Numbered from the stretch's first letter, positions 7,070-61,477 are shown. The stretch is DNA of 64,000 nucleotides from an uncultured Acidimicrobiia bacterium (GCA_964195235.1 CAXMOW010000005.1:2642-66641); one strand, 5' to 3'. A program made the numbers and translations. The notes: generated by a model from the sequence alone, not told the origin.

Positions 7070-7630
7070 CTATATGTGATTGTTGGCAGGACTGAACCCG
7101 AATCGCTCCAACACCTCATAACTGGCCTCTCCGCTGCCAAAGTGGCTCCGGAACAACACGAGCTGATCCGCCTTCCACCCCAGATCAACGTGCTGTTCGA
7201 CTAATTGGGTGACGTCCTTCTGAGGACGGACTCGAGCCAGGGTGACGTGAGGATGAAAGGGGCGCTCTTCCGGCCCGAGACCTGCTGACTGAGCGGCGGT
7301 CTCTGTGATCTCGTTGAGCTCGCCAAGAGAGCCAGAACTGTCTACAACGCCTGCCCACACCACAGTCGCTTTCCTCGGATTAGGGAACGCACCCAAACCT
7401 GTCAGCCGAATCGAGAAAGACATCGGCATCTCAGCCTCAGCCAGAACTGCCAGAAATCGTTCGTAGGCGACTTGATCGACTGACCCAAGAAATCGGACGG
7501 TGATATGCCAATTCTCGGGTGGCACCACCTTGCCGGGAATGTCGATTCCGTTTATCCGATCCGCCAGAGCAAGCTTTATCTCATGCGGTAGTGGGACGGC
7601 GGCGAAGACCCTGCCTACGGTTTCCACCAC
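7070..7630 (-). CDS. thpR: RNA 2',3'-cyclic phosphodiesterase (2H / LigT-ThpR family)
   Basis: 186 aa. Two H-x-T motifs (NWHITVRFLG and HPHVTLARV). GTG start overlaps the cinA 3' end. Confidence 0.8.
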   Translation of the reverse strand: MVETVGRVFAAVPLPHEIKLALADRINGIDIPGKVVPPENWHITVRFLGSVDQVAYERFLAVLAEAEMPMSFSIRLTGLGAFPNPRKATVVWAGVVDSSGSLGELNEITETAAQSAGLGPEERPFHPHVTLARVRPQKDVTQLVEQHVDLGWKADQLVLFRSHFGSGEASYEVLERFGFSPANNHI

Positions 7631-8850: not shown

Positions 8851-10154
8851 TGGACCATTGCCTCCATGTCAGGTCCGTAGGCGCCGACATACTCCACTTT
8901 GCGCCACTCCCCCGGCTCACCTGCGTCGAGGCGAACAACACCGTCGATCTCAGGAGCGTGTCGATAGGAGCGAGCGATCGGAACCCCGTCTTCGACCTGA
9001 TCCACCAACACCTCGTCATCAAGGCCAAGCCAAGCTGCGTTGGCTGCGGCCGTCGCCTCCTCTTGGACTGACGTGAGACGCCTGAGACGAGCCATGGTGA
9101 GCTCACGAGGCACCTGATTGTCCATGTCGGCGGCCGGAGTGCCCGGCTCGGCCGAGTATGGGAAAAACCCTGCCCAGTCGAGACGAGCTTGCTCCAGAAA
9201 CTCCTCGAGCTCGTCTGTGTGCGACTCGGTCTCGCCTGGGAACCCGACGATGAAAGAAGACCTGAGGGCTGCCTCGGGAGCAAGTTCTCGAATCCTCTGG
9301 ATCAGCGCCAGGTGTTTTTCGGTGTTGCCGGGGCGCTTCATACCCCGCAGCAGGGGCTGGGAGACGTGTTGAAGCGACAGGTCAAAGTAGGGGACGACCT
9401 TGTCATTGGACGTCATCTCGGTGAGGAGACGTTCGTTGATCTCACGGGGATGCAGATAGAGAAGTCGGAGCCGGCGCAACCCCTCGACATCAGAGAGGAA
9501 CGTGAGGAGGTCAGGAAGACCCCCCGGTGCGTCAATGTCGCGCCCATAGGCCGCGAGATCCTGTGCAACCAGGATCACCTCACTAACGCCGGAGCGAGTG
9601 AGCGCAACCAGCTCCTCACGGATCTCGGTGGGGCGCCGAGAGCGTTGTTTGCCTCTGATCAGGGGAATCGCACAAAAGGTGCACGGCTTGTTACAGCCTT
9701 CGGCAACCTTCAGATAGGCATATGGCAGACCAGTAGCGGGTCGGCCGGTGGCGTGCAGGATGTCCATCGCCGGGCGCCGCTTCATTTCGACCGGGTGCCA
9801 TCGCGTCAGATCGTCGAGGACGCCCACCAGATCGCCATACTTGTCCAGGCCAAGAACCGCGTCGACCTCGGGGAGAGCGCTTTCGACCTCGGTGCCGAAC
9901 CTTTGGGCCATACAGCCGATCACGATCGAGCGTGCGCCGCTGGCTTTGCGATCCTCCAGCTCGAGAATGGTCTCGACCGACTCTGCCCTGGCCTCTTCTA
10001 TGAAGGCACATGTGTTCGTCATCACAACGTCGGCCGTCTCGGGTGAGTCAGCCCACGTGTACCCGGCCTCGGAGAGCATCGCTATCACCTTCTCCGAGTC
10101 CACCTGATTCTTGGCGCAGCCGAGAGTCGTCAGCCAGAGGGAGGGACCTGCCAT
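8847..10154 (-). CDS. rimO: Ribosomal protein S12 methylthiotransferase
   Basis: MTTase N-terminus LTTLGCAKNQVDSE, radical-SAM motif CNKPCTFCAIP, and a TRAM domain. I moved the start to the ATG at 10154 (MAGPSLWL..). The longer ORF to 10268 has a Cys/Arg-rich, non-conserved-looking leader and would overlap the next ORF. Confidence 0.9.
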   Translation of the reverse strand: MAGPSLWLTTLGCAKNQVDSEKVIAMLSEAGYTWADSPETADVVMTNTCAFIEEARAESVETILELEDRKASGARSIVIGCMAQRFGTEVESALPEVDAVLGLDKYGDLVGVLDDLTRWHPVEMKRRPAMDILHATGRPATGLPYAYLKVAEGCNKPCTFCAIPLIRGKQRSRRPTEIREELVALTRSGVSEVILVAQDLAAYGRDIDAPGGLPDLLTFLSDVEGLRRLRLLYLHPREINERLLTEMTSNDKVVPYFDLSLQHVSQPLLRGMKRPGNTEKHLALIQRIRELAPEAALRSSFIVGFPGETESHTDELEEFLEQARLDWAGFFPYSAEPGTPAADMDNQVPRELTMARLRRLTSVQEEATAAANAAWLGLDDEVLVDQVEDGVPIARSYRHAPEIDGVVRLDAGEPGEWRKVEYVGAYGPDMEAMVQ

Positions 10155-10218
10155 CAGAGCGACACTAAATGCGTGTGCACAAAGGCGTACATGTTCACGC
10201 GTTGTGCAGACGCATCTC

Positions 10219-10476
10219 TCAATGGGTGCGGGTGGCTTCGACCACCGACAGGAGTTCGGCCGAGTCAACGGCGTCGGCCAAAGTGTTCCAGGTCGCTGTG
10301 CTCACGACGTTCTCCTCTTCGATTTCGGCACACGCCAGATAAACCGCGTCGGCGAGCGGGCCAATGTTCTGATCGACCTCAAAAGCTTCCGCAATGGAGG
10401 TGCGGGCGAGTGGAACGTCCAACCGGCCGACAGCCCTGATCGCCTCCTCGGCGAAGGCCGTCACCTTCAAGTCCAC
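10219..10476 (-). CDS. Hypothetical small acidic protein (85 aa)
   Basis: The GTG lies 4 nt after the stop of the upstream GAPDH-like gene. GC-rich third codon positions are consistent with coding. No family recognised and no clear RBS. Confidence 0.4.
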   Translation of the reverse strand: MDLKVTAFAEEAIRAVGRLDVPLARTSIAEAFEVDQNIGPLADAVYLACAEIEEENVVSTATWNTLADAVDSAELLSVVEATRTH

Positions 10477-10480
10477 GGGC

Positions 10481-11536
10481 TCAGATCTCGGCGTACAGGT
10501 AGCGACGGAGAATGTCGAGCCGTTCTTCCCTGGTCTCGGGATGCAAATACCAGAGCAACGCCGCCACCGTGGACAACAACGGATTCCCGTCTTGTGGTGT
10601 GAAGGAAAACCCGACCACTTCGTTGCCGTCGCGCACCGCCAGCGTGTCCAGAGGAATGACAGCCTGGCTCATGAGGCGTCCGAAATACCCGTGGTCGCGA
10701 CCGAAGGAGAAGATCTGGTTGGCCGACGTCTTGTGAGTGACCGCGATCCGGGTGTTCTCCATCAGACGTTCCTTGACCTCGTCGACGCTGATGTCGTGGT
10801 CGAGAGTCAGCGAAAAGTGGAGCGAATGCATGTACTGGGTGTTCATTTTCAGCGCACTCGAGAAAATATTGAGGTCATAGCCCAGGGTGCTGAACAGGTC
10901 ATGTGAGTCCCGGGCATGGTGGGTGCCGAAACGCTCATCGGCATGGCTACCTACGGTTGGGCTGGCGATGAACCCGTCGTCCTGAGAGATGTCGTTGGCC
11001 CGTCGGATGCAGAGGAACCGACCGTCTTCGAGATGGTTGGTTCCGTCAAGATCCATTCCCAGCGCCTTGACCAGCACTGAGATGTTGTGAGTGTTGCAAC
11101 TGACGATCTGGATGAATTTGTCCTCATTGTGAACGAGGGCCTCGTCGTTGATTCCACGGGCATACATCTTGCCGAAGCCGTATTCCGAGCCCTGGGCCAT
11201 GTAGCCAATCGGACCTGAAGCTTCGCCATAAAACTCCTGTTTGTTCTGATTGCCCACTGGAGTGCAGTCGATGACCACGGTGGCCCTCCCGATGGCCTCC
11301 CGCGTCTCGTACTTCGGAGTGTGACCCAACTCTTCGAAAGTGGCCTTGCGGTTGTCATCGACACAGAGCATCGCTCCACGGCGCACCAGATCGGAGACTT
11401 TCGCCCTTTCAGTAATCAGCGGAGTGCGCTTGTGGAATGTGACCTCGTCAATGCCGAAGTGCTCCTTGTTGTCGGCAAGCAGGCCGATCAGTGGTTCACC
11501 GATGGTGCCCGTGCCCACAACGTGGACGATGTTCAT
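10481..11536 (-). CDS. Type II (archaeal-type) glyceraldehyde-3-phosphate dehydrogenase-like NAD(P) oxidoreductase
   Basis: 351 aa from the ATG at 11536 (GGAGGG RBS 7 nt upstream). Rossmann N-terminus VHVVGTGTIGEP, and VVIDCTPVG. A catalytic-Cys motif IVSCNTH aligns with the archaeal GAPDH VSCNTT. A downstream HH..D segment is also present. Confidence 0.7.
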   Translation of the reverse strand: MNIVHVVGTGTIGEPLIGLLADNKEHFGIDEVTFHKRTPLITERAKVSDLVRRGAMLCVDDNRKATFEELGHTPKYETREAIGRATVVIDCTPVGNQNKQEFYGEASGPIGYMAQGSEYGFGKMYARGINDEALVHNEDKFIQIVSCNTHNISVLVKALGMDLDGTNHLEDGRFLCIRRANDISQDDGFIASPTVGSHADERFGTHHARDSHDLFSTLGYDLNIFSSALKMNTQYMHSLHFSLTLDHDISVDEVKERLMENTRIAVTHKTSANQIFSFGRDHGYFGRLMSQAVIPLDTLAVRDGNEVVGFSFTPQDGNPLLSTVAALLWYLHPETREERLDILRRYLYAEI

Positions 11537-24741: not shown

Positions 24742-27048
24742 CTAGACGCCGGCCGACTCCGCGTGAAGAATGTCCTCGAGCTCGTCCACCGTCATCAAAA
24801 CGTCACGAGCCTTGCTACCCACCGAAGGCCCGACGACGCCCTTGAGCTCCAGGGCGTCCATCACACGGCCGGCACGGGCGAAGCCGATTCGGAGCTTCCG
24901 TTGCAACATCGACGTCGAACCCAGCTGCGAACGCACCACCAGATCCATAGCCTGCCTGATCAAAACCGCATCGTCATCATCTGCCTCCACAGCTTGGGCA
25001 GCTGAGGCGGCCGCGGCAGCCTCGAGAACCTTCTTATCCTCATAAACGGCTTCACGTTGCCCTTTCACCCAATCGACAACGGCTTCGATCTCGGACTCTC
25101 GTACCCACGCTCCCTGGATTCGTTGCGGTCGCGGTTCCTTGGCGGTGACGACGAGCATGTCCCCCATGCCTATCAGCTTCTCAGCGCCTGAGCCGTCGAG
25201 GATCACACGGCTGTCCGTTTGCGACGCAACACTGAAAGCGAGACGGCTGGGCACGTTGGCTTTGATCACACCGGTGATGACATCAACCGAAGGGCGCTGG
25301 GTCGCAATGACCAGGTGGATGCCGACCGCTCGCGCCATTTGTGCGATACGAACGATGGAATCCTCAACTTCACGACCAGCAACCATCATCAAGTCGTTGA
25401 GCTCGTCGATGAGAACAACGATGAAGGGGAAGCGATCGAATCCCTCAGGATCGAGGTTCCCGGAGTCGAGTTTGTCACGGTAACCCTCGATGTCACGAAC
25501 CTTGGCGTCGGCCAGCAAGTCATAACGTCGGTCCATCTCGGCCACGGCCCACTTCAGCGCATCATTCGCCTTTTTCGGGTTGGTGATCACGCGCGTGAGC
25601 AAATGTGGAACGCCGTTGTACTGCCCCAGCTCCACACGCTTCGGGTCGACCATGATCAGACGGACATCATCAGGATGGGTTCGCATCAGCAGCGAAGTCA
25701 CGATCGAGTTGATGCAAGATGATTTTCCGGCGCCGGTGGCTCCCGCAATCAGAACGTGGGGAAGCTCGGCCAGATTGAGCAGCTTGGGGGAGCCCGAGAT
25801 GTCCATTCCCAAGCCGACAGTCAGAGGACTCGTTGGTTTCGCAAATTCAGGGCTGGCCAGAATGTCGCCCAAGGAGACAAGACGACGTTTGGTGTTGGGT
25901 ACCTCGACTCCGATTGCAGATTTCCCGGGAATCGGCACAAGGAGACGGACATCGGGCGTGGCAAGGGCGTATGCAATGTCATGTGAGAGGTTGGAAACCC
26001 GGTTCACCTTGACCCCGGGAGCGAGCTCGATCTCGTAACGGGTCACGGTGGGCCCGGGGACGATCTTGGTCAGGGTCGCGTCGACCCCGTGTTGGAGAAG
26101 AGTGTCTTCCAGTTGGCGTGCTGTTTCTTCTAACGAGCGACGATTGATCTCGCCACCGGTTCCACCCTCGAGGAGCTCCAGCGGCGGAAGCTCATAGTCG
26201 GTCTGGGTTAGATCGATTGTGGCGACGATCGGAGAGTCCTCGACGACCTCTACCGGTTCCGGCTCATCTTCGACCTTCGGCTTCTTCTCCTTCGCCGGTT
26301 TCTGACGTTGGTGTTTGCCTTTCTTTGGCCCTGCGGCAGGCGTGACCATCGGCGTCACCGGACCAGGCTTCAGACTCGCAAACGCTTCGGTGGCGAATCT
26401 CTTGACACTGCGACCCATGTCGGCAATCCCATGAAAAAGCTGGCGCACGGTCGTTTGGGTCATGATGAGAACGCCCATTCCAATGGTCGCGGCAAGCACA
26501 ACAAAAGAACCCCACGAGCCGAGGATGCGACGCATCGGGAAGGCGATCAAAGCACCGACTGCGCCGCCGCGCTCCGTGACCAGATCGATACTTGGTCGCA
26601 GTGACACAGCCCCGGTCAGGAGATGAAAGAGAGCGAGTGTGCCTATGAATGTGGTGATGCCGCCGATAACGAGACGTCGCGCTCCGTCGCGTGGTTTGCC
26701 CACGATCAGGGCGATTCCGATTCCCAGCAGAGCCACAGGCAGCGCAAATCTCCAGACGCCGAAGAGGAACGTGCTCCCGGTCTGGAGTCCGTCGCCAACG
26801 GGGCCGGCGCGATCGACGAATGCCAACGTGACCAGGATCGAAAGGACGACGAGCACCAGACCCCAGACGTCATCCGTCTGTCGGCCAAATGTCGTACGGA
26901 TCGAGTCCCGAAACGCCGCCAGCTTTTGGCGAATCGTGCTCGACTTTGACTTCTTGTTCTTTTTGGCTGAGGACACCCGTCTCCGCCCGGATCCCTTCCG
27001 GGTGGGTGTCCGCGTTGTCATGTGAATGGAGACAATACCCGCCCACAC
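24742..27048 (-). CDS. ftsK: DNA translocase FtsK
   Basis: 768 aa. N-terminal TM helices, a Pro/Lys/Glu-rich linker, a motor domain (Walker A GATGAGKSSCINS) and a C-terminal gamma winged-helix (SMLQRKLRIGFARAGRVMD). An alternative ATG start lies at 27021. Confidence 0.93.
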   Translation of the reverse strand: MWAGIVSIHMTTRTPTRKGSGRRRVSSAKKNKKSKSSTIRQKLAAFRDSIRTTFGRQTDDVWGLVLVVLSILVTLAFVDRAGPVGDGLQTGSTFLFGVWRFALPVALLGIGIALIVGKPRDGARRLVIGGITTFIGTLALFHLLTGAVSLRPSIDLVTERGGAVGALIAFPMRRILGSWGSFVVLAATIGMGVLIMTQTTVRQLFHGIADMGRSVKRFATEAFASLKPGPVTPMVTPAAGPKKGKHQRQKPAKEKKPKVEDEPEPVEVVEDSPIVATIDLTQTDYELPPLELLEGGTGGEINRRSLEETARQLEDTLLQHGVDATLTKIVPGPTVTRYEIELAPGVKVNRVSNLSHDIAYALATPDVRLLVPIPGKSAIGVEVPNTKRRLVSLGDILASPEFAKPTSPLTVGLGMDISGSPKLLNLAELPHVLIAGATGAGKSSCINSIVTSLLMRTHPDDVRLIMVDPKRVELGQYNGVPHLLTRVITNPKKANDALKWAVAEMDRRYDLLADAKVRDIEGYRDKLDSGNLDPEGFDRFPFIVVLIDELNDLMMVAGREVEDSIVRIAQMARAVGIHLVIATQRPSVDVITGVIKANVPSRLAFSVASQTDSRVILDGSGAEKLIGMGDMLVVTAKEPRPQRIQGAWVRESEIEAVVDWVKGQREAVYEDKKVLEAAAAASAAQAVEADDDDAVLIRQAMDLVVRSQLGSTSMLQRKLRIGFARAGRVMDALELKGVVGPSVGSKARDVLMTVDELEDILHAESAGV

Positions 27049-27068
27049 CGTTCAGTACGGTGAATCCG

Positions 27069-27752
27069 ATGCCGGCACCAATGATCCCCTATCAACCAGA
27101 GCGTCTTGACCCGGCTGAGCAGATGCGGCGGGCTCATGACTACTACAGAGAGATGGACGACAGACGCAGTGTCCGATTCTTCTCCGATGACGCCGTACCT
27201 CGCGAACTGGTGGAGCACGCGATTCTCACCGCATCGACCGCGCCTTCAGGTGCCCATCGTCAGCCGTGGACATTTGTGGTGACTGGGGATCCGGACGTGA
27301 AACGTCAGATCCGGGAAGCGGCTGAAGAAGAAGAGCGGATCAATTACGAAGGTGGACGTCTACCCGATCATTGGAAAGAGGCGTTGGAGCCTCTCGGGAC
27401 CGATTCAGATAAAGCGTATCTGGAGACGGTTCCTTGGGTCGTGGTCTTGTTCGAGGAGCGGTATGGCGTCGCCGAAGACGGATCGCGGATCCACAACTTC
27501 TATGTGAAAGAGTCGTGTGGGATTGCGGCAGGCATCTTCATCACAGCACTCCACCATGCTGGTCTCGCCACGCTCACCCATACACCAAGCCCCATGGCCT
27601 TTCTGACCAAACTCTTGGAGCGACCCAAAAACGAACGCCCGTTTTGCATGTTTCCCATCGGCTACCCGTCGGACGACTGTGTTGTGCCGGATTTACGTCG
27701 CAAGAGCCTCGACGAGGTGATGGTCGAGGTGGGCACAGCGGGGAAGGGTTAG
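27069..27752 (+). CDS. Iodotyrosine deiodinase (IYD)-like flavin-dependent halotyrosine dehalogenase, nitroreductase superfamily
   Basis: 227 aa from the ATG at 27069. RRSVRFFSDDAVPRELVEHAILTASTAPSGAHRQPWTFVVTGDPDVKRQIREAAEEEERINY... and ..FPIGYPSDDCVVPDLRRKSLDEVM line up closely with my recollection of animal IYD (RRSVRF..., GTAPSGAH.EPWTFVVV.DPDVK..I....EEEE.INY, VGYPS....VPDLKRK.L). The 5' part of the track ORF (26889-27068) overlaps ftsK and is rejected. Confidence 0.8.
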   Translation: MPAPMIPYQPERLDPAEQMRRAHDYYREMDDRRSVRFFSDDAVPRELVEHAILTASTAPSGAHRQPWTFVVTGDPDVKRQIREAAEEEERINYEGGRLPDHWKEALEPLGTDSDKAYLETVPWVVVLFEERYGVAEDGSRIHNFYVKESCGIAAGIFITALHHAGLATLTHTPSPMAFLTKLLERPKNERPFCMFPIGYPSDDCVVPDLRRKSLDEVMVEVGTAGKG

Positions 27753-27816: not shown

Positions 27817-29451
27817 TCACAGCTCCATCACGACCGGGACGATGACCGGTTTGCGGGCGGTCTCAGCACGGATCACGCGGCCGGCCGCCTGACGAATCGT
27901 CTTCTGGAGCTCAGCGTGGTCTGTGCGACCCGATTTGTGCCCGTCGATCACCGATCTGACCGCGTCAGCCGCTTTCGACAAAACAGGGGCCGGGTCGTCC
28001 ATGACCCCATGACTGTCCATTTCCGGCCCGTAGAGGATCTCCCCCGTTTCGTGGTCAATGCCAACTGTGATCACCACGACACCATCGTCAGCCAGGTGCG
28101 ACCTATCGCGGAGGACGGCGTTCTGCACATCCCCGACTGCCGACCCATCGAGGTAGACGTATCCGGCCGGGACCGCCCGTCGCTGGACCGTGGTCTTCTT
28201 CCCATTGATCGTGATCCGATCACCATCTTCCAACACCTCAACCGTTTTCACACCCATCTTGCGCGCAAGTTCCGCGTGCGCCGAGAGATGTCGGTATTCA
28301 CCGTGGACGGGGACAAACGCCTTCGGTCGAACAATATTGAGGAAGGTGAGGAGCTCTTCTCTGGCCGCATGACCCGAAACATGAACGTGGCTGCTCCTGC
28401 CGTGAACCACTTTGGCCCCGCGGCGCATCAAATTGGAAATCACTTTCGATACTGCCGTTTCATTGCCAGGAATGGGCTTGGCCGAAATCAGCACCGTATC
28501 GGTTTCGTCCAGCTCGACGAACTTGTGACGACCCTGCGACATCAATGAGAGGGCCGCAAAGGCTTCACCTTGACTACCGGTTGTTATCAAGAGTTGCTGG
28601 TTGTCAGGAAGGTCTGTGAGCTCTTTGATGTCGACGATCGACCGCTCCGGAATGTCCAAAATCCCCAAGTCGCCGGCAACCGTTGTGTACCGGTGCATCG
28701 AACGACCGAAGAATGCGATCTTGCGCCCTGCGGCAATCCCTGCATCTGCGATCTGCTGAACACGATGGACATGAGAGGCAAAACACGCAGTGATTACACG
28801 ACCCTCCGCGTCTCGGATCACATCCGCAATCGGTTGGCCAACGGAACTCTCAGAGGGTTCGAAACCTTCCTTCTCGGCGTTGGTGGAATCGGAAAGGAGC
28901 AAGCGCACACCCCTGCGGGCCAACGCTGCAAACGCGGGCAGATCGGTCGGCATCCCGTCGATCGGCGTCGGATCGAGTTTGAAGTCCCCTGAATGAACGA
29001 CAATTCCCTCAGGTGTGTCAAAAGCAATCGCGGAAGCGTTAGGTACCGAGTGGCTCACCGGGATCATCATGAACTTGAAGGGACCATGCTCGATCCACTT
29101 CTTCTGAGTGATTGTGTGGAACTCCGCTTCGACACCCAACTCGTCGACACGGCCTTGAGCCAACGCAAGTGTCAGCACTGTGCCATAGACCGGTACCTGA
29201 ATGTCTCTCAGGAAATAAGCGAGCGCCCCCATGTGGTCCTCATGGCCGTGGGTGATGACCGCCATCACCACGTCATTTTTCCTCTTGACCAACCACGACC
29301 AATCGGGAAAAACCAGGTCTACGCCAAGCATGTCCTCTTCGGGGAACATCAGACCGACATCGATAAGTGCGATCTTGCCGTCGACCTCGAGGGCGGCGCA
29401 GTTGCGCCCGATTTCACCGAGGCCGCCTAGAAATGTGACTGAAACGCTCAC
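27817..29451 (-). CDS. rnj: Ribonuclease J
   Basis: 544 aa. Metallo-beta-lactamase motif HGHEDHMGAL, a beta-CASP domain and a C-terminal domain. Confidence 0.93.
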   Translation of the reverse strand: MSVSVTFLGGLGEIGRNCAALEVDGKIALIDVGLMFPEEDMLGVDLVFPDWSWLVKRKNDVVMAVITHGHEDHMGALAYFLRDIQVPVYGTVLTLALAQGRVDELGVEAEFHTITQKKWIEHGPFKFMMIPVSHSVPNASAIAFDTPEGIVVHSGDFKLDPTPIDGMPTDLPAFAALARRGVRLLLSDSTNAEKEGFEPSESSVGQPIADVIRDAEGRVITACFASHVHRVQQIADAGIAAGRKIAFFGRSMHRYTTVAGDLGILDIPERSIVDIKELTDLPDNQQLLITTGSQGEAFAALSLMSQGRHKFVELDETDTVLISAKPIPGNETAVSKVISNLMRRGAKVVHGRSSHVHVSGHAAREELLTFLNIVRPKAFVPVHGEYRHLSAHAELARKMGVKTVEVLEDGDRITINGKKTTVQRRAVPAGYVYLDGSAVGDVQNAVLRDRSHLADDGVVVITVGIDHETGEILYGPEMDSHGVMDDPAPVLSKAADAVRSVIDGHKSGRTDHAELQKTIRQAAGRVIRAETARKPVIVPVVMEL

Positions 29452-30341
29452 AGGCCCTGTATTGCCCCCAAAGCCTTCTCTATGGCTCTAACTGTGTCGT
29501 CGGAGGCGGACACTAACGGAAGGCGAACATCGCCGACAGGCTCCCAAAAAGCATTCATCGCAGCTTTGACCGGAGCCGGGTTGGACTCGAGGAAACAGGC
29601 CTCACACAGTGGAAGCAGGTCGTTGTGCAGGCTTCTCGCCTCGTTCCAGTCGCCCTCATATGCGGCGTTGATCATTGCCTTGATTGTTGGCCCGGCCAAA
29701 TGCCCTACGACAGAGACGACGCCAACAGCCCCAATAGCGAGCATGGGGAGCGTGAATGTGTCCTGTCCGGAGTAGATCGGAAGACTGGGCGCGCTTTTGA
29801 TCGTCGCCGCGGTCAATTCCAGGTCGAGCGCGGCGTCTTTCACTGCCGCAATATTGGGATGTGATGCCAGCGCGGCCAGAGTCTCGACTTCGGTCTTCAC
29901 GGCTGTCCGACCCGGGATGTTGTACACGATCACTGGAAGGCCGACGTCGGCAATGGCGGTGAAGTGCGCAACCTGACCGGCCTGCGACGGTTTGTTGTAA
30001 TAAGGCGTCACCGCGAGCGCCCCGTCAGCGCCAATATCTGCGGCACGTCCCGTCATCTCAACTGAGTGGCGTGTGTCGTTGGTGCCAGTTCCAGCCACCA
30101 CCAGAGTGTCCTTTTCTTGGACCGCTTCGATGACCGTTACAAACAACGCAATCTTCTCGTCGTCCGACAGTGTTGGGGATTCACCGGTGGTGCCGGCCAC
30201 AACCAGGGCATCGGTTCCTTGGTCGGAAAGATGGCGGGCTAGCCGCCACGCCGCTTCGTGGTCGACGGCACCGGATGATGTGAACGGGGTGATCATCGCC
30301 GTGGCCAGTCGGCCGAAGGGGGCGGATGGAGTGGAGTTCAC
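29448..30341 (-). CDS. dapA: 4-hydroxy-tetrahydrodipicolinate synthase
   Basis: 297 aa. GTTGESPTL, a YNIPGRT-type motif (VYNIPGRTAV) and a Schiff-base Lys context (AAVKDA). Confidence 0.93.
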   Translation of the reverse strand: MNSTPSAPFGRLATAMITPFTSSGAVDHEAAWRLARHLSDQGTDALVVAGTTGESPTLSDDEKIALFVTVIEAVQEKDTLVVAGTGTNDTRHSVEMTGRAADIGADGALAVTPYYNKPSQAGQVAHFTAIADVGLPVIVYNIPGRTAVKTEVETLAALASHPNIAAVKDAALDLELTAATIKSAPSLPIYSGQDTFTLPMLAIGAVGVVSVVGHLAGPTIKAMINAAYEGDWNEARSLHNDLLPLCEACFLESNPAPVKAAMNAFWEPVGDVRLPLVSASDDTVRAIEKALGAIQGL

Positions 30342-30385
30342 GTGTGCAACCCTACCGATCGAATCGCTAGAAACCGGAGACAGAG

Positions 30386-31864
30386 ATGGAGTTGAAACTT
30401 CCTGCGCCTTGCGTTGTCGTGCTCATCGGCCCAAGCCGGACCGGCAAGACGACTTGGGCCCACAACCACTTTGCCTCAAACGAAGTGGTGTCTTCGGACG
30501 CGCTCCGTGCAATGGTGGGAATCGACGAAGACGACCAGATCGCAAGCACCTCCGCCTTCGAGCTCCTCGATCAAATTTTTTCCGAGCGTCTCACACGAGG
30601 ACTGACGACGGTGATCGACACCACCGGGCTCCAAACCGAAAACCGGGCGAAATGGATCGAAACAGCGCACGGGGCAGAACTTCCTATTTACGCGATCGTC
30701 TTCACCGCAACACTCGATGAGGTCGAGCGACCCAACCAATCGCGAGCGAGACCGATCCCCAAGACTGTCCTCCGCAAGCAGTTCACGACCATGCAAAAGG
30801 TGATGAAAGGAATCGCCGATGAGGGATTTGACGGAGTGCACGAAGAGCAAACGGTACGTGCGGTTGTCTCAACTCTCATAGCTTCCACTCCCGACGATGC
30901 ACAGCCGACGGGCCACACCTTCGGGCTGCTGTTGAGCAGATTCGAGTGGGCGACACGTGATTTCGGCGATCAACTAGCCAAGATCGCCCGGCGTGCAGAG
31001 GACGCCGGGTTCACCGACCTATGGGTCATGGATCACTTCCGCCAGATCCAACAGGTGGGCAGACCGTGGGAAGACATTCCAGAGGCCTACACCGCCCTCG
31101 CCTACCTGGCAGGTGTGACCACCAATATTCGACTTGGGGCTCTGGTTAGCGGGATCACACATCGCAATCCGGTGCTGCTTGGAAAAATGCTGGCTTCACT
31201 CGACGTGCTCTCAGGGGGGCGGGTCATCGCTGGACTGGGAGCGGCTTGGGACGAAAAAGAACACGAGGCGTACGGGATCGACTTCCCGAGCCTCAGTGGT
31301 CGTTATGACCTCCTCGAGGACACGCTGAACATGCTCCCGCTGCTTTGGGGCAAAGGCACGCCTGGCTTTGAGGGCAAGACCTTTTCCGCGGCCGAGTTGA
31401 TCTCATATCCGCGCCCCATCCAGGACCCGATTCCGATCATGGTGGGTGGCTCGGGAGAGCTGAAGACGTTGCGTTTGGTCGCTGAGTACGCCGATGCTTG
31501 CAACCTGTTCGGTGACCCGAACACGATTCGCCACAAGGTCGAAGTGCTTCGTCGACATTGCGCCGACCTCGACAGAGATCCATCCGAGATACGGGTTACC
31601 CATTTGATCACGGCGATGGCGGCATCCGATCCCGGTGCCCTGCGGGAACGGATCGGAAGCCTCCGGGGCCGCAACCAGACGGTCGAGCAGTATGCCAAGC
31701 AGAACAACGCAGGGACTGTGGACGACCTGATCGGTCTGTTCTCGACCTACTCGGAAGCCGGTGCCGACCACTCGATTGTGGCGCTTCCCGACGTGGCGAT
31801 GGAAAGGTCCATCGAGACATTCGCAGAGGTGATCACATTCTTCAAACAGCCGTTGAGGTCCTAG
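30386..31864 (+). CDS. Fusion protein: N-terminal polynucleotide-kinase-like P-loop kinase domain plus C-terminal LLM-class (F420-type luciferase-like) oxidoreductase
   Basis: 492 aa. Residues 1-165 carry Walker A GPSRTGKTTW, SSD..R, TVIDTTGL and NQSRARPIP, as in Pnkp/AAA_33 kinase domains. Residues ~175-492 form an LLM TIM barrel (LWVMDHF.., GALVSGITHRNPVLLGKMLASLDVLSGGRVIAGLGAAW). Confidence 0.8.
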   Translation: MELKLPAPCVVVLIGPSRTGKTTWAHNHFASNEVVSSDALRAMVGIDEDDQIASTSAFELLDQIFSERLTRGLTTVIDTTGLQTENRAKWIETAHGAELPIYAIVFTATLDEVERPNQSRARPIPKTVLRKQFTTMQKVMKGIADEGFDGVHEEQTVRAVVSTLIASTPDDAQPTGHTFGLLLSRFEWATRDFGDQLAKIARRAEDAGFTDLWVMDHFRQIQQVGRPWEDIPEAYTALAYLAGVTTNIRLGALVSGITHRNPVLLGKMLASLDVLSGGRVIAGLGAAWDEKEHEAYGIDFPSLSGRYDLLEDTLNMLPLLWGKGTPGFEGKTFSAAELISYPRPIQDPIPIMVGGSGELKTLRLVAEYADACNLFGDPNTIRHKVEVLRRHCADLDRDPSEIRVTHLITAMAASDPGALRERIGSLRGRNQTVEQYAKQNNAGTVDDLIGLFSTYSEAGADHSIVALPDVAMERSIETFAEVITFFKQPLRS

Positions 31865-33588
31865 GTCTCATTACGCGCAGCCGCGGAGACTGCGACCTCT
31901 ACCGCTCCGGCGACGGTTGCGTGAATGTTGGCGTCCCCGATCACGGCGAGGGCCCCGGATCGCTGCGCAACCGCCACAGCATCGCCGTGGAGTCGTGCCA
32001 GATAGACATCAACACCGTTATCCCGCAACTCGACGGTCAACTCCTGGAGCGCAATCGCGCCGGTCATGTCTATGACCGTCATCTGCTCGCAATCCAACAC
32101 GACAGCAAACGCCTCAGGGTCAGTCTCGTAGAGCATCTCTCTGACTGAATCGCCGAAGCCATTTGCATTGGAAAAAATCAGATCAGCCTCAAATCGGTGA
32201 ACCACGACACCTTCTAGTCGCCGAGCGTCTTCCGAGTCGGCAAGTGACACGAAGGTCTTCCGATCACCTATCTGGACCCGGCCGAGCTCTGTCGCCGCAG
32301 GAAAGCTTGCTCGATATATGAGTATCAACAAAGAAATGCCAACTCCGATGACTATGCCTTCCAAGACGCCGAAAACGAGTACCCCGACGAATGAGGCCAA
32401 ACCTGCGTAGAAGTCTTCTCGACGAACCGCCATCATCCGGCGGAGCTTCTTGAGGTTGATCAGCTTCCATACAGCGTGGACAACGATGGCGCCCAAAGTC
32501 GCTTCCGGCAGATAGAAGAACAGTCCCGTCAGGAAAAGAATCGTGACAACCGTTATCACGGCTGTGATCAGCCCGGACATCTGAGTCTTCTGACCGGCGG
32601 AGTCTCCAGCTGCGGTCCGCGACAGTGAGCCATCAACGACGAACCCTTGGGAAATGCCAGCGCCGAGGTTGGCGATTCCAAGACCAATCATCTCTTGATT
32701 CGGATCGACCTGGTAGCCGTATTTCTTTGCGTATTGACGCGCTGCCGCCAGCGACTCGGCGTAGCCAACAACCACGATGGCCAGAGCCCCGGCAATGAGC
32801 TCGGCAATGAGGACGCCTTCTGGCCAGCCAGGCAAGCCGATAGGTGGAAGGCCGGCGGGAATGTCACCGATGATTTCAATGCCAGCTTCTTCGAAACCGA
32901 AAACAGCCGATGTGACGATGGCAAGTATCACGACCGTGAGAGCAGCTGGGATCTTCGGTGTGAATTTGTGCATTGCGAAGAGCAGTGCCAGAGATGTGAA
33001 TCCGACGATCATCGTGCCCAGATGCCAATCCCCGATGTCGCGGATGATGTCGAGGAATTCCCGCACGACGTTTTCGCCTTCGGCCTCTACTCCAAACATC
33101 TTGTCAAGCTGTCCAACAGCGATGGTGATAGCCAGCCCAACGATGAACCCATCGAGCACTGACTGAGACATGAAGTTGGCGATCCAACCCATTCGGACCA
33201 GCCCAAGGATTATAAGGATGGCTCCGGTGATTAATGCCAGCCACGACGTGGCTTCCCAAAACGTGGCTGAACCCGTGCTCACAAGCGCCCCAACTGTTGC
33301 CGCTGACACGATCGCCACAGTCGAGCTCGGACCCACGGACAGATGGCGCGAAGTACCAAAGACGGCGTACCCCAGAAGAGCCAACGGCGCGGTATAGAGA
33401 CCAGCTTCGGGCGGAACGCCGGCGATCCCGGCATAAGCCATTGCCTCGGGAACCAGTAAGGCCCACACCGTGAGACCAGCTACCAAGTCCCAGCGAAAAC
33501 TCTTGCCCCAATCGTAGTTGGGTAGCCAACCGACGATCGGAACATATCGCTCGAGGAGCGATTTCTCGTCGGGTCGGGTCAGTGGCAA
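31861..33588 (-). CDS. SulP family anion (sulfate/bicarbonate) permease with a C-terminal STAS domain
   Basis: 575 aa. The N-terminal motif region (WLPNYDW.. DLVAGLTV..LVPEAMAYA), multiple TM helices and a STAS domain are all present. Confidence 0.9.
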   Translation of the reverse strand: MPLTRPDEKSLLERYVPIVGWLPNYDWGKSFRWDLVAGLTVWALLVPEAMAYAGIAGVPPEAGLYTAPLALLGYAVFGTSRHLSVGPSSTVAIVSAATVGALVSTGSATFWEATSWLALITGAILIILGLVRMGWIANFMSQSVLDGFIVGLAITIAVGQLDKMFGVEAEGENVVREFLDIIRDIGDWHLGTMIVGFTSLALLFAMHKFTPKIPAALTVVILAIVTSAVFGFEEAGIEIIGDIPAGLPPIGLPGWPEGVLIAELIAGALAIVVVGYAESLAAARQYAKKYGYQVDPNQEMIGLGIANLGAGISQGFVVDGSLSRTAAGDSAGQKTQMSGLITAVITVVTILFLTGLFFYLPEATLGAIVVHAVWKLINLKKLRRMMAVRREDFYAGLASFVGVLVFGVLEGIVIGVGISLLILIYRASFPAATELGRVQIGDRKTFVSLADSEDARRLEGVVVHRFEADLIFSNANGFGDSVREMLYETDPEAFAVVLDCEQMTVIDMTGAIALQELTVELRDNGVDVYLARLHGDAVAVAQRSGALAVIGDANIHATVAGAVEVAVSAAARNET

Positions 33589-34983: not shown

Positions 34984-35916
34984 CTAGATGAGCGAAACAA
35001 TGTTCGCTAGTTCCTCCACCCCGGCAGCATCGATCGGGTCGAGAACCACCTGAATGTGGTCCATTCCAGCATCAGCGAACGCAGCGATGTTTGACGCCAT
35101 CTCCTCATGGCTACCCGTGATCGGACCTGCCTGCGGACGATCTTCACTGCCGGCCACTCGTCCCTCGCCTCTAGATAGCTGAACGTAGATAGCGGCGGTC
35201 CTCTCGACCTCCGAGGGGTCACGACCAACCTCGACACAAGCAGCCTCGAGATCGCCGACCAGTGGTGCCAAACCAGATACGTTGTTGCCAAACCAGACAT
35301 GCCACGTATTCCAGAGATCGACATGAGGAGCGGTGATTCTCAGCATTCGAGGACCGTTCGATCCGACCATGATCTTCATGTCGGGACGCGCCTCAGGCAG
35401 TAGCTCCATGCTTCGATGGGTGTAATACCGACCTTCGAAGTCGATTGCACCTTCACGCAACAGCGTCCGAATGACTGTGAAGGCTTCCTCGAACCGAGAA
35501 ACACGGTTGTCGTAAGGGAAACCGAATGCTCTGTACTCGGGAAGATTCCACCCCGCCCCCAAGCCGAGAATCAGCCGGCCTCCGCTGATGTCGTCCACCG
35601 TTGCGGCCTTTTTGGCAATCATGGCCGGGGAATGGAATGAAGTCGCTGCCACCAGCGGCCCCAACTCGACCCGATTGGTTGCTTCCGCGAGGGCCGCAAG
35701 TGTCGACCAGGCTTCGAGAGGTCCCCTCGTCCCGGTGACATCGTCACGAAACAAGAGGTGATCCCCCACCCAGATCGAATCGAATCCACAGTTTTCTGCG
35801 GTCAATGCGATGTCACGGAACTCGATCCAGGGAACGTCCCGTTCGACTTCGGGTAGCTGAACACCGATCTTCATTTCTCCAATCATCCAGGCATCGTACG
35901 AACATCGGTGTCTCAT
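34984..35916 (-). CDS. LLM-class F420-dependent-type oxidoreductase
   Basis: 310 aa. Luciferase-like barrel (FDSIWVGDHLLF, GRLILGLGAGW). The true start may be an internal Met (35886 or 35874, MKIGVQLPE). Confidence 0.82.
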   Translation of the reverse strand: MRHRCSYDAWMIGEMKIGVQLPEVERDVPWIEFRDIALTAENCGFDSIWVGDHLLFRDDVTGTRGPLEAWSTLAALAEATNRVELGPLVAATSFHSPAMIAKKAATVDDISGGRLILGLGAGWNLPEYRAFGFPYDNRVSRFEEAFTVIRTLLREGAIDFEGRYYTHRSMELLPEARPDMKIMVGSNGPRMLRITAPHVDLWNTWHVWFGNNVSGLAPLVGDLEAACVEVGRDPSEVERTAAIYVQLSRGEGRVAGSEDRPQAGPITGSHEEMASNIAAFADAGMDHIQVVLDPIDAAGVEELANIVSLI

Positions 35917-35929
35917 CGGCTACAAAGGG

Positions 35930-37627
35930 ATGATGTCGAACGACCTCTCTGCACTCAATCCGATTCAGAGGTCCAGAGACATCGAGCAGATGACGTCATC
36001 TCCTCTCGACATCCTCGTCATCGGTGGTGGCATCACGGGAAGCGGTGCTGCGCTTGACGCTGCGAGCCGTGGGTTGAGCGTCGGCCTCCTCGAACAGCGT
36101 GATTACGCATCGGGGACTTCAAGCCGGTCGTCCAAGCTGTTCCACGGCGGACTCCGCTATCTCGAACAACTCAATTTTGGGCTAGTCAGTGAGGCGCTTG
36201 GCGAGCGAAATCTGATGCTGAAGATGCTCTGCCCCCATCTGGCGAGACCGGTCTCATTTGTCTACCCGCTGAGACATCGGTTGTGGGAACGAGCTTATGT
36301 CGGTGTCGGGGTCTTCATATACGACCTCATGGCAAAGAGATCGGGAAGCCCACTCCCCCGCCACGAGCACATCTCCAAGTCACAGTTGGAGGAGATGGCC
36401 CCGGCAATCGATGGGTCGAAATTCCATGGCGCGGTCCGCTATTGGGATGCGCAGGTAGATGATGCCCGTCATACCATGATGGTGGCTCGAACTGCCGCCG
36501 CCCACGGAGCAACTCTGGCTACCAGTTCCCGTGTCGTCGGCCTCGAGGCCACCGATGCCGGTGTCCTGGTGTCGGCTATTGACCTCGAGTCGGGGAATCC
36601 ACTCAACATCGAAGCCAAGACCGTGATTAACGCCGCAGGAGTTTGGAGCGATGACATTCAGGATCTAGCCGGTAGCGACGGTCTCGATGTTGAGGCATCG
36701 AAGGGAATTCATCTCGTCGTGCCCAGGGATCGAATCGCTTCGGAAACCGGAATGATCCTTCGCACCAAGGACAGTGTCCTCTTTGTGATCCCATGGGATC
36801 AACACTGGATCATCGGGACCACCGACACACCATGGTCTCTCCGCCGTGCCCATCCAGCAGCCAGCAAGACAGACATTGACTACGTCCTCGGATGGATCAA
36901 CACGGTCCTGGCTAAACCCCTTCGACCCGATGATGTCGTCGGGGTCTACGCCGGGCTGCGACCATTGCTCACGGGCGAATCTGAGGAGACATCCAAGCTA
37001 AGCCGCGAACACGCGGTCATTGACGATGGGCGCGGACTGATTTCTGTGGCCGGTGGCAAGTACACGACCTACAGACTGATGGCGAGGGACGCCGTCGATG
37101 TTGCAGCCCGTTATCTGACGGGCAAAGTTCCCGAGTCACGCACTGCCGAACTGCCGCTGGTGGGTGCCGACTCCTACCGTTGGGCCAAGGGCGAATCGCT
37201 TCCGGCAGATGTGAGCGAGGACACCCATGTTCGGCTCCTGGGCCGATATGGATCCTTGGCCCGGGAGATCTATGCCATTCTCGAACGGCGACCCGAACTT
37301 GGAGATCGGGTTTCGGAAGAGCCATATATGGGCGCCGAGATCGTGTATGCCGCCACCCACGAAGGCGCCCTCCATCTCGATGACTTCCTCACCCGACGCA
37401 CCCGGATATCCATCGAAACCCGGCATCGCGGTGCGCAGGCGGCCGGGCCGGTGAGCCGTCTTGTCTCACCCCTGTTGGGCTGGGATGAGACGATACAAAA
37501 CCGCGAAATTGAACACTATCGAGCCCGCGTCGAAGCTGAGCGAGACTCACAGCGGCAACCAGACGATCGTACGGCGGACGCCGCTCGGATGGGAGCTTCC
37601 GACGTCCGTACCGGATTGTCCATTTAG
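35930..37627 (+). CDS. glpD: FAD-dependent glycerol-3-phosphate dehydrogenase
   Basis: 565 aa. FAD fingerprint DILVIGGGITGSGAALDAASRG, SSRSSKLFHGGLRYLE, and a C-terminal alpha-helical domain. Confidence 0.9.
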   Translation: MMSNDLSALNPIQRSRDIEQMTSSPLDILVIGGGITGSGAALDAASRGLSVGLLEQRDYASGTSSRSSKLFHGGLRYLEQLNFGLVSEALGERNLMLKMLCPHLARPVSFVYPLRHRLWERAYVGVGVFIYDLMAKRSGSPLPRHEHISKSQLEEMAPAIDGSKFHGAVRYWDAQVDDARHTMMVARTAAAHGATLATSSRVVGLEATDAGVLVSAIDLESGNPLNIEAKTVINAAGVWSDDIQDLAGSDGLDVEASKGIHLVVPRDRIASETGMILRTKDSVLFVIPWDQHWIIGTTDTPWSLRRAHPAASKTDIDYVLGWINTVLAKPLRPDDVVGVYAGLRPLLTGESEETSKLSREHAVIDDGRGLISVAGGKYTTYRLMARDAVDVAARYLTGKVPESRTAELPLVGADSYRWAKGESLPADVSEDTHVRLLGRYGSLAREIYAILERRPELGDRVSEEPYMGAEIVYAATHEGALHLDDFLTRRTRISIETRHRGAQAAGPVSRLVSPLLGWDETIQNREIEHYRARVEAERDSQRQPDDRTADAARMGASDVRTGLSI

Positions 37628-59600: not shown

Positions 59601-61477
59601 TTGTAAGACGGCCCACTTGTAGTCGACTCGAGAATCTCGTAAGTCGTGTTGCGGAGGGCAGGAGTTCTGCCCGCCGCCACGATGACCGACCTGAACTCCT
59701 CCGGTGTCACTTCTTGGCCGTGTTCTGCACCCGCCGCTCGTGTGATGATTTCGCCCATCAATGTGCCGCCGAGGTCATTGCATCCGGCCTCAAGTAGACG
59801 TCTACCACCATCGAGGCCGAGCTTCACCCAGGACGCTTGGATGTTGTCGATCAGTCCGTCGAAGGCGATTCGGGAGACCGAATGGAGCAGCACGGATTCG
59901 TCCCAGGTCGGGCCGGGTCGAGCACGACCACGCAGGTAAATGGGCGACCCCATGTGGACAAACGGGAGTGGGACCATCTCAGTGAATCCGCCAGTCCGAC
60001 GTTGGATCTCGCGTACTACTTCGAGGTGGTTTGCCCAGGATCGAGGATGATCAATATGGCCAAACATGATCGTGGACGTAGCCCTCAGCCCCATCTCGTG
60101 GGCTGTGATCATCACTTCGGCCCATTGGGAGGTGCGGATCTTGTCCGGGCAAAGATGGGTACGGATGTCATCGTCGAGGATCTCGGCTGCTGTTCCGGGC
60201 AGCGTGCCAAGACCGGCGTCTTTGAGTTCTGAAAGGAACTGTTTCACGGAGACACCCAAAGTCTCAGCCCCTTGCCATACCTCGAGTGGTGTGAATCCAT
60301 GAATGTGCATGTCCGGCATCTCTTCTTTGATCGCCTTGACGACTTCGACGTAGAAATTTCCGGTGAAGTCCGGGTGGATGCCACCTTGAAGAGTGACTTC
60401 GGTGGCCCCCAAATCCCAGGCCTCACGAGCCGCGGCCACTATTTCGTCAAGACCCATGAGGTAGGGCTCGCCACGAAGATTCAGTGATTTCGGACCTTTG
60501 GAGAATGCACAGAAGCCGCACTTGAAGTAACAAAGGTTGGTGTAGTTGATGTTCCGATTCACCACATACGTGACAGTGTCGCCGACAGTCCTCTTGCGAA
60601 GCTCGTCAGCAACGAATCCGACCGCATCGATCTGATTGCCGCGAGCTTTGAACAGCGCCTCGACTTCCTCGGGGCTAGGTGCATCGCCTTCAAGCGAACG
60701 CTCCAGAATCTGGGTGAGATCACCAGCGCCGCCAATACCTTCGGGAGCCGATCCATCAACCCAGAGAGCATCGGGCCACTCCGCGGAGAGTCGATGAGTC
60801 GGTACCGGTGGTTCCATGTCTTTGCCCGGTGCCCACTCGTAACGGGGACGAACAGCTCCCGAGCCGTCCACCTGGTTGAGCCAGGTTGTGAAATCATCTT
60901 TGGATAAAACACGACGAGCGTCATCGATTTCGACACCGACCGGGAACGCCGATCGCTCTATCAGAAGATGATCGGACAAGGCCTCGCGCAGTTCACCGAT
61001 TCGTTCGATACTCCAGTCGCGCAACAAGAGATCGGTAGCCCCTTCGTCGACGGCCCGTACTGCTTGAGGAACATCGTCGACGAAAACCGACACCGCTGTG
61101 CCCAGCCCGGGAAGCATTGCGATGAGTGCTGCTTCATTCACTCCGGACCGAGGTGCCCGGAGATATGGGGCGCGAGTCCGGGCCACCGCGTCAAGAATCT
61201 CTTCTCTAGCGCCTTCGGCGAGGACGGTGAGTCGCCACGGTGAGATGCCGGTCTCGGCATGTTCCAGAGCAGTAGCCGGCGGCAAGGCCCACGCTGCAGA
61301 GTTTTCGTTCCCAACGCTGGTGCCGACCACAAGAATTGTGCCGCTAGCGGCGGCTCGTAGGTCATCGTCGGACGGCGAGTCCATCTCAACGGCGGTTGTC
61401 CCTTCCCGACGCCGGCTCACCGCTGTGAGTTCCGCGAGCATTTCGGTAGGACGGACTCGGAGGTAGGTGATTCTCAT
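59597..61477 (-). CDS. cofH: FO synthase subunit 2 (CofH, radical SAM) with a ~250-aa N-terminal extension
   Basis: 626 aa. The radical-SAM motif CYFKCGFCAFSKG sits at residues 316-323, and the CofH core starts at about residue 255. The ATG overlaps the cofG stop (ATGA). Confidence 0.85.
   Translation of the reverse strand: MRITYLRVRPTEMLAELTAVSRRREGTTAVEMDSPSDDDLRAAASGTILVVGTSVGNENSAAWALPPATALEHAETGISPWRLTVLAEGAREEILDAVARTRAPYLRAPRSGVNEAALIAMLPGLGTAVSVFVDDVPQAVRAVDEGATDLLLRDWSIERIGELREALSDHLLIERSAFPVGVEIDDARRVLSKDDFTTWLNQVDGSGAVRPRYEWAPGKDMEPPVPTHRLSAEWPDALWVDGSAPEGIGGAGDLTQILERSLEGDAPSPEEVEALFKARGNQIDAVGFVADELRKRTVGDTVTYVVNRNINYTNLCYFKCGFCAFSKGPKSLNLRGEPYLMGLDEIVAAAREAWDLGATEVTLQGGIHPDFTGNFYVEVVKAIKEEMPDMHIHGFTPLEVWQGAETLGVSVKQFLSELKDAGLGTLPGTAAEILDDDIRTHLCPDKIRTSQWAEVMITAHEMGLRATSTIMFGHIDHPRSWANHLEVVREIQRRTGGFTEMVPLPFVHMGSPIYLRGRARPGPTWDESVLLHSVSRIAFDGLIDNIQASWVKLGLDGGRRLLEAGCNDLGGTLMGEIITRAAGAEHGQEVTPEEFRSVIVAAGRTPALRNTTYEILESTTSGPSYN

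Follow-up and report, generated by a model that had tools for sequence, protein, structure and literature searches.

A Pnkp-clade kinase fused to an Rv1855c-type luciferase-like oxidoreductase as a candidate two-activity enzyme

Introduction

What reaction would call for a kinase of the polynucleotide-kinase type and a luciferase-like oxidoreductase in a single polypeptide? The question is raised by a gene at positions 30386-31864 of a 64,000-nucleotide stretch of DNA (the window) from an uncultured Acidimicrobiia bacterium (GCA_964195235.1, CAXMOW010000005.1:2642-66641). Its product joins an N-terminal P-loop kinase domain to a C-terminal luciferase-like monooxygenase (LLM) barrel. A preliminary description, made from the sequence alone, proposed a bifunctional enzyme that phosphorylates and oxidizes or reduces one substrate. 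Our analysis finds that the fusion is genuine and that its kinase residues are intact. We give a probability of roughly one half to the reading of the protein as an enzyme with two activities: phosphorylation of a nucleoside-like primary hydroxyl by the kinase, and F420-dependent hydride transfer on the same molecule by the LLM domain.

Both halves come from well-studied superfamilies, while their pairing is new to the literature that we found. A literature search returned neither a description of the kinase-LLM pairing nor a characterized example, in agreement with the preliminary description. Public databases name the protein by its LLM half alone, and NCBI names the homologues as TIGR03560 family.

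A genuine two-domain protein

In the window protein, both Pfam domains passed their cut-offs: AAA_33 (PF13671) with 80.7 bits against 27 (1.7e-22; residues 10-141, profile positions 1-141 of 143) and Bac_luciferase (PF00296) with 158.1 bits against 27.9 (4.4e-46; residues 195-430). The NCBIfam model TIGR03560 (F420_Rv1855c subfamily) was narrowly passed, at 238.5 bits against a curated cut-off of 231.4, and the three following NCBIfam matches are F420 families too. The N-terminal part also matched the bacterial Pnkp model TIGR04075, an equivalog for the three-domain Pnkp (kinase, metallophosphoesterase, adenylyltransferase/ligase) at ≥750 bits; the match covered positions 1-168 of 851 only and, at 131.8 bits, stayed below that threshold. 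No full Pnkp and no other Pnkp-like match was found in the genome. Among structures in the PDB, the nearest solved relative of residues 1-152 is the kinase domain of C. thermocellum Pnkp (CthPnk; 4gp6, 4jst, 4mde; E 2.5e-24), and the alignment is gapless to residue 120, hence the shared residue numbers used here. The AlphaFold2 model, built on 70 homologues, has a mean predicted local distance difference test (pLDDT) score of 94.5 and a predicted template modelling (pTM) score of 0.90. It comprises a P-loop domain, a linker of lower confidence (pLDDT 77-83, residues ~161-180) and a beta/alpha barrel (pLDDT >90).

The four kinase motifs quoted in the preliminary description lie at the spacing it gave: GPSRTGKTTW at residues 15-24, VVSSDALR at 34-41, TVIDTTGL at 75-82 and N.SRARPIP at 117-125. 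Only five more codons are open upstream of the ATG. The parts of the gene, in window coordinates, are:

30386-31864 (+): whole open reading frame (ORF) of the kinase-LLM fusion protein, ATG start, 492 amino acids (aa) plus stop
30376-30379 (+): Shine-Dalgarno-like GGAG, 6 nt 5' of the ATG, read from the sequence
30386-30880 (+): Pnkp-clade P-loop kinase domain (AAA_33), residues 1-165, from the Pfam, TIGR04075 and CthPnk matches
30428-30454 (+): P-loop GPSRTGKTT, residues 15-23, aligning with 15-GSSGSGKST-23 of CthPnk; contains K21 and T22 (Ser22 in CthPnk)
30491-30508 (+): SSDALR, residues 36-41, with Ser37, the general base Asp38 and the acceptor-anchoring Arg41 (roles by PMC3902929)
30608-30634 (+): TVIDTTGLQ, residues 75-83, with the invariant Asp78 and then the acceptor loop that differs between the fused and Pnkp clades
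30728-30760 (+): lid segment, residues 115-125, in which Arg115, Arg120 and Arg122 correspond to Arg116, Arg120 and Arg123 of CthPnk
30881-30916 (+): variable linker, residues 166-177, without conserved columns
30917-31861 (+): LLM TIM barrel of the TIGR03560/Rv1855c type, residues 178-492, predicted to be F420-dependent
31022-31048 (+): WVMDHFRQI, residues 213-221, carrying the Asp216-His217 motif of the barrel active site

At least 120 full-length homologues (59-88% identity), all with both Pfam domains, came from a search of 5.8 billion proteins, and the two-domain architecture claimed from the sequence is thereby real and conserved. In a scan with one genome per prokaryotic species, kinase and LLM lay in one frame at 70 of the 80 best loci, and the ESM Atlas holds at least nine clusters whose every member has both domains. 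It had been feared that a sequencing or assembly frameshift joins two genes here, or that the kinase is a decayed remnant that has lost its Walker A or Asp residues in orthologues. Neither applies. About 200 independent sequences, from ENA, JGI, NCBI and Logan assemblies as well as isolate genomes, keep the junction in frame; composition is even across it; and K21, D38 and R41 are kept in all members of a set of 70 diverse fusions (36-88% identity). What speaks for an artefact is a frame problem at 2 of the ~90 loci examined, once between the domains (L043) and once inside the kinase (L123). The homologue, locus and residue-conservation data already refute this explanation, and the fusion protein is genuine.

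At L043 (8917-10484; G268:C7, same class), the kinase (8917-9525) and the LLM frame (9015-10484) are different, overlapping frames. Its 228-aa kinase frame was considered as a split-gene form and rejected as a frameshifted copy of the fusion: the frame shifts in the linker, through an assembly error or in a pseudogene, and the locus is not a true split gene pair. At L123 (6001-6440), in a metagenome-assembled genome (MAG), an Arg-rich, apparently out-of-frame stretch replaces kinase residues ~36-100, including D38, R41 and D78, after which the sequence is in frame again; this is either a compensated pair of frameshifts or a series of indel errors. The preliminary description had suggested looking for relatives that encode the two halves as adjacent genes. 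None was found, and no kinase lies within 6 kb of any of the ten LLM-only relatives. The fusion is obligate in its clade, with no confirmed stand-alone or adjacent-gene form seen.

Among 301 genomes of the same class, the kinase domain occurs in 43, with about 39 of the matches in frames of ~480-680 aa, most of them ~490-520 aa long, and four in frames of 857-927 aa, a length typical of true Pnkp. An even sample of 401 genomes of the phylum, including the unpublished genome G345, contained about 10 with a fusion-type frame and about 27 with a Pnkp-type frame. Carriers include Acidimicrobiia, Solirubrobacteraceae and cultured Kribbella, Terrabacter, Nocardioides, Pseudonocardia and Antrihabitans, along with one Candidatus Dormiibacter MAG. 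Within Actinomycetota, the spread of the fusion is patchy.

Catalytic residues of the kinase domain

CthPnk (4gp6, 4gp7, 4jst, 4mde), part of the Pnkp-Hen1 RNA repair system, has the same fold as the window kinase. In its Michaelis complex, Lys21 and Ser22 engage the nucleoside triphosphate (NTP) and Mg2+, and Asp38 is the general base. Arg41, Ser37 and Thr80 contact the first phosphodiester of the acceptor and Gln83 the second, Gln51 and Val129 contact the first base and Phe58 the second, and Arg116, Arg120 and Arg123 form the lid (PMC3902929). The window protein matches CthPnk at Lys21, Ser/Thr22, Ser37, Asp38, Arg41, Gln51, Phe58, Asp78, Thr80, Gln83, the lid arginines and Val129. Unlike full-length Pnkp, it has neither a metallophosphoesterase nor a ligase domain.

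Besides K21, D38 and R41, residues F58, D78 and G20 are invariant across the 70 fusions, position 22 is S or T throughout and S37 is present in 68. The lid is looser. Position 120 is R in 58 fusions and K in 6; position 122 is R in 51, K in 9 and H in 6; and position 116 is R in 59, where the window protein has Pro, with Arg at 115. The full set of Pnk catalytic-type residues is present in the window protein (K21, T22, D38, R41, D78, R120, R122). Since K21, D38, R41 and D78 are invariant, the kinase domain is not dead, and the conservation of catalytic residues across these fusions indicates selection for phosphoryl transfer to an acceptor hydroxyl, beyond nucleotide binding.

Ancestry of the kinase and its acceptor loop

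Exhaustive searching with the kinase domain yielded 3361 relatives at E ≤1e-3. The architectures of the best 150 of them comprise the LLM fusion, Pnkp-type proteins (Metallophos with or without PNKP_ligase), one HAD_PNKP, one Maf fusion and one partial SGL fusion, so that the non-LLM forms are mostly nucleic-acid end-processing enzymes. In a quick maximum-likelihood tree, a split (Shimodaira-Hasegawa-like approximate likelihood ratio test, SH-aLRT, 80) separates all 37 LLM-labelled kinases from all Metallophos, HAD and Maf forms. On this tree the fused kinases appear as one clade, which fits a single origin of the fusion. The SGL case, protein P0143 (L130, 498-1433), joins a fused-clade kinase to part of an SMP-30/gluconolactonase-like domain in place of the LLM. 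It is one instance only, on a single 1.8 kb metagenomic contig, and may be chimeric.

We compared 40 Pnkp-side sequences with 24 full-length fusions. The catalytic residues are the same in both groups, and the two differ around the acceptor:

Position 80: Thr in 39 of 40 on the Pnkp side; Leu in 14, Thr in 8 and Val in 2 of 24 fusions
Position 81: mostly Asn on the Pnkp side; Gly in 23 of 24 fusions
Position 83: Gln, Arg, Glu or Thr on the Pnkp side; Asp in 17 and Glu in 5 of 24 fusions
Position 51: Gln in 32 of 40 on the Pnkp side; Leu in 12 and Gln in 10 of 24 fusions

Most of the fused clade, on its own side of the tree split, thus departs from CthPnk by Thr80 to Leu, Asn81 to Gly and position 83 to Asp or Glu. 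The window protein retains Thr80, Gln83 and Gln51 and therefore resembles the Pnkp pattern more closely than most of its clade does. Fused kinases conserve T79, which might serve instead. The remodelled loop suggests an acceptor that is related to, and not identical with, a polynucleotide 5' end.

The LLM domain and its predicted cofactor

The C-terminal domain is a TIM-barrel oxidoreductase of the Rv1855c (TIGR03560) group. Foldseek matched it with probability 1.00 to many LLM structures. The top matches include F420-bound Mer, KvPepI, Adf, Fgd and FGD2 and the uncharacterized LLM 3rao, and also the flavin/flavin mononucleotide (FMN)-dependent SfnG, RutA and MsuD. The characterized F420 enzymes Mer (8qpl, 1z69), Adf (1rhc), Fgd (3c8n, 5lxe), FGD2/fHMAD (9fp4) and KvPepI (9gm0) share its fold, with target-normalized TM-scores of 0.72-0.78, sequence E-values of 1e-10 to 1e-13 and 19-24% identity. 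None of their family models was passed by the window protein, and none of them has a kinase domain. Sequence E-values are alike for the FMN-dependent RutA and the F420-dependent Mer. On family scores and structural neighbours, F420 is the predicted cofactor.

Unfused LLM relatives, proteins of ~292 aa known for example from Cellulomonas and Luteimicrobium, show 47-51% identity. Fused and unfused proteins have a common core of D216, H217, Q220, R260, K267, R279, W288, E292, H293, R306, G354, G355, D370 and N373, in which D216, H217 and Q220 are invariant in the 70 fusions. We take the Asp216-His217 motif to be the counterpart of the catalytic His of Fgd and Adf. Compared with other TIGR03560 LLMs, which have the same core residues, the fusion adds the N-terminal kinase and about 20 positions that are conserved in fusions only and absent from unfused relatives (including R226, W228, Y341, R343 and Q346). 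These residues could line a changed substrate pocket or an inter-domain interface. To our knowledge, no member of TIGR03560 has been characterized, and our search of the Rv1855c literature returned no functional study.

The organism encodes F420 biosynthesis genes: its genome has matches to cofD (276.2 bits, cut-off 257.45) and cofH (488.4 bits, cut-off 374.1). A CofH/FbiC-type FO synthase gene at ~59633-60670 (-) (639-aa frame, 488 bits) places F420 biosynthesis in the window together with the fusion; a weaker radical-SAM match lies just past this gene. The genome has at least ten LLM paralogues. One, unfused and 310 aa long, lies at window positions 34984-35916 (-) and is ~30% identical to the fused LLM domain. 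It is divergent from a GlpD-like flavin adenine dinucleotide (FAD) glycerol-3-phosphate oxidoreductase (35930-37627, +), and this pair recurs in several related genomes.

Proposed reaction and alternatives

In the reaction that we propose, the kinase would move the gamma-phosphate of an NTP to the primary hydroxyl of a nucleoside-like acceptor, which Ser37 and Arg41 would hold and which would stack on Phe58; this acceptor could be a small nucleotide-like compound or an RNA or DNA 5' end. On the same substrate molecule, F420/F420H2-dependent hydride transfer would be the task of the LLM domain, so that one protein performs two consecutive steps of a repair, salvage or detoxification reaction. 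As the gene is solitary in most genomes, no dedicated partner would be needed. The bifunctionality proposed in the preliminary description is borne out as far as the architecture and the intact kinase residues go. Its candidate substrates (a sugar phosphate, an antibiotic or a cofactor intermediate) found no specific support, and the kept S37, D38, R41, F58 and V128 point instead to a nucleoside-type acceptor, with the reservation that the acceptor loop has been remodelled.

A common substrate for the two domains is something that we infer from two observations, the obligate fusion and a weak predicted interface. Folded as separate chains, kinase and LLM gave an interface score of 0.54 against 0.00 for the best control, graded as weak support. 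The runs agree in at least 93% of contacts, and partner pLDDT is at least 90. In a benchmark, 58 of 80 solved complexes attained the interface mark, as did 2 of 110 mismatched pairs; at scores of ≤0.60, just 7 of the 80 solved complexes did so, along with both of the passing mismatches. Together with the single-chain pTM of 0.90, the score hints at a fixed kinase-LLM interface and does not establish it.

Several points weigh against the proposed reaction. Both activities are predictions from sequence and modelled structure. Thr80, which makes a first-phosphodiester contact in CthPnk, is Leu or Val in 16 of the 24 fusions, and position 83 is Asp or Glu in 22; the loop thus differs from that of true polynucleotide kinases, and the acceptor may therefore not be a polynucleotide. 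On the redox side, the preference for F420 over FMN depends on a family score just 7 bits above its cut-off. Co-occurrence with F420 biosynthesis does not discriminate, as cofD is present in 286 of 301 genomes of the class (a count that takes in the unpublished genome G275). We know of no LLM enzyme that acts on nucleic acids. Beside the gene, no ligase, 3'-phosphatase or other partner is conserved at the class, phylum, isolate or metagenome loci, and a scan of 70 upstream regions found one LexA-like box and no PafBC-type motif.

Some of these points would sit more easily with a small-molecule pathway, as in the preliminary description, in which a sugar, polyol, antibiotic or cofactor precursor receives a phosphate from the kinase and the LLM oxidizes or reduces the phosphorylated compound, for example by an Fgd-like sugar-phosphate oxidation that regenerates F420H2. 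Characterized F420-dependent LLMs work on small molecules, lipids or peptides, most fusions have lost Thr80 and gained an acidic position 83, and P0143 joins a kinase of the same clade to a partial SMP-30/gluconolactonase-like domain. We nevertheless consider such a pathway unlikely, at odds of about three to one against. S37, R41, F58 and V128, which correspond to first-nucleotide and second-base residues of CthPnk, are conserved, and the detectable kinase relatives are nucleic-acid end-processing enzymes rather than sugar or antibiotic kinases. In every lineage examined, the gene lies outside any biosynthetic or catabolic cluster, the SGL fusion amounts to a partial domain on one 1.8 kb contig, and the Fgd families score far under their cut-offs (TIGR03554: 32 bits against 420).

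It is more doubtful still that the two domains are independent or that one regulates the other, the kinase-like domain binding or hydrolysing NTP to regulate or stabilize the LLM, or having an unrelated activity, with no shared substrate. The variable linker with its lower confidence, the weak interface prediction and the close unfused LLM relatives, which function with no kinase nearby, speak for such an arrangement. Against it stand Asp38 and Arg41, whose presence in 70/70 fusions is expected for transfer to an acceptor hydroxyl rather than for plain NTP binding, and the obligate nature of the fusion, whose one apparent split proved to be a frameshifted copy.

A quite specific idea, to which we attach a very small probability, is that of a self-contained healing enzyme for oxidatively broken nucleic-acid ends. 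Radicals or enediyne-type agents leave a 5'-aldehyde when they abstract the C5'-hydrogen; with F420H2, the LLM domain would reduce this terminus to a 5'-hydroxyl, from which the kinase would then make a ligatable 5'-phosphate. The two active sites would take turns at a single carbon of one terminal nucleotide, and an obligate fusion with no conserved partner gene would therefore be explained. If true, end healing would gain its first redox step, and F420 enzymes a first member that acts on nucleic acid.

Relation to known kinase fusions and significance

The broader proposal, of kinase and hydride-transfer steps on one nucleoside-like molecule, has parallels among known proteins. T4 Pnkp, HAD_PNKP, kinase plus Metallophos and Maf plus kinase likewise join a Pnk-type kinase to a second enzyme, and in these fusions the second enzyme shares the nucleic-acid or nucleotide substrate. 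Their partner is a phosphoesterase, a ligase or a nucleotide pyrophosphatase, whereas here it is a redox enzyme. A Pnk-type module with an F420 enzyme implies a reaction that would join phosphoryl transfer to deazaflavin hydride transfer, described by neither field. If the acceptor is a nucleic-acid end, a redox step would be added to RNA or DNA end healing. If it is a small molecule, Pnk-type kinases would gain a new substrate class, and the Rv1855c group of LLMs, to which a Mycobacterium tuberculosis protein belongs, a first function. Because the gene is present in cultured strains (Kribbella orskensis, Terrabacter species, Nocardioides agri and Pseudonocardia sp.), the question is directly testable.

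Gene neighbourhood

In the window, the fusion gene is divergent from dapA (29448-30341, -) and RNase J (27817-29451, -) and convergent with a SulP transporter gene (31861-33588, -), an arrangement shared by about ten related genomes and absent beyond the family. The layout ftsK ... RNase J - dapA, divergent fusion, peptidyl-prolyl isomerase (PPIase), PEBP, second LLM and GlpD is confined to the window's own family. Among 11 more distant loci of the class and 70 of the phylum, no neighbour was common to more than about 10 loci, in a comparison whose ORF caller is crude for high-GC DNA. Pfam matches identify the neighbours in isolates as unrelated genes (anti-sigma-type HATPase, DUF5926, D-Ala-D-Ala carboxypeptidase, SnoaL, CoA transferase, IMPDH), and the metagenome contexts are unrelated too, with one convergent RNase HII. 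A defence-system library gave a weak generic oxidoreductase match only. With unrelated neighbours and no recurrent LexA- or PafBC-type motif upstream, the gene behaves as a unit that is solitary and self-contained.

One neighbour alone is suggestive: in two Kribbella species, a divergent LigT/2H phosphoesterase gene (L071, 5101-5664; L072, 5002-5562) adjoins the fusion. LigT-type 2H phosphoesterases are a family of RNA 3'-end healing enzymes. A LigT/ThpR-type homologue, 36% identical to the Kribbella LigT, is also encoded in the window at 7094-7612 (-), 23 kb from the fusion, and no linkage is implied. Elsewhere in the window, a nitroreductase-family ORF of 287 aa (26889-27752, +), when called from its first start codon, has ~160 nt in common with the 5' end of the FtsK gene (24742-27048, -); its true start is probably further downstream.

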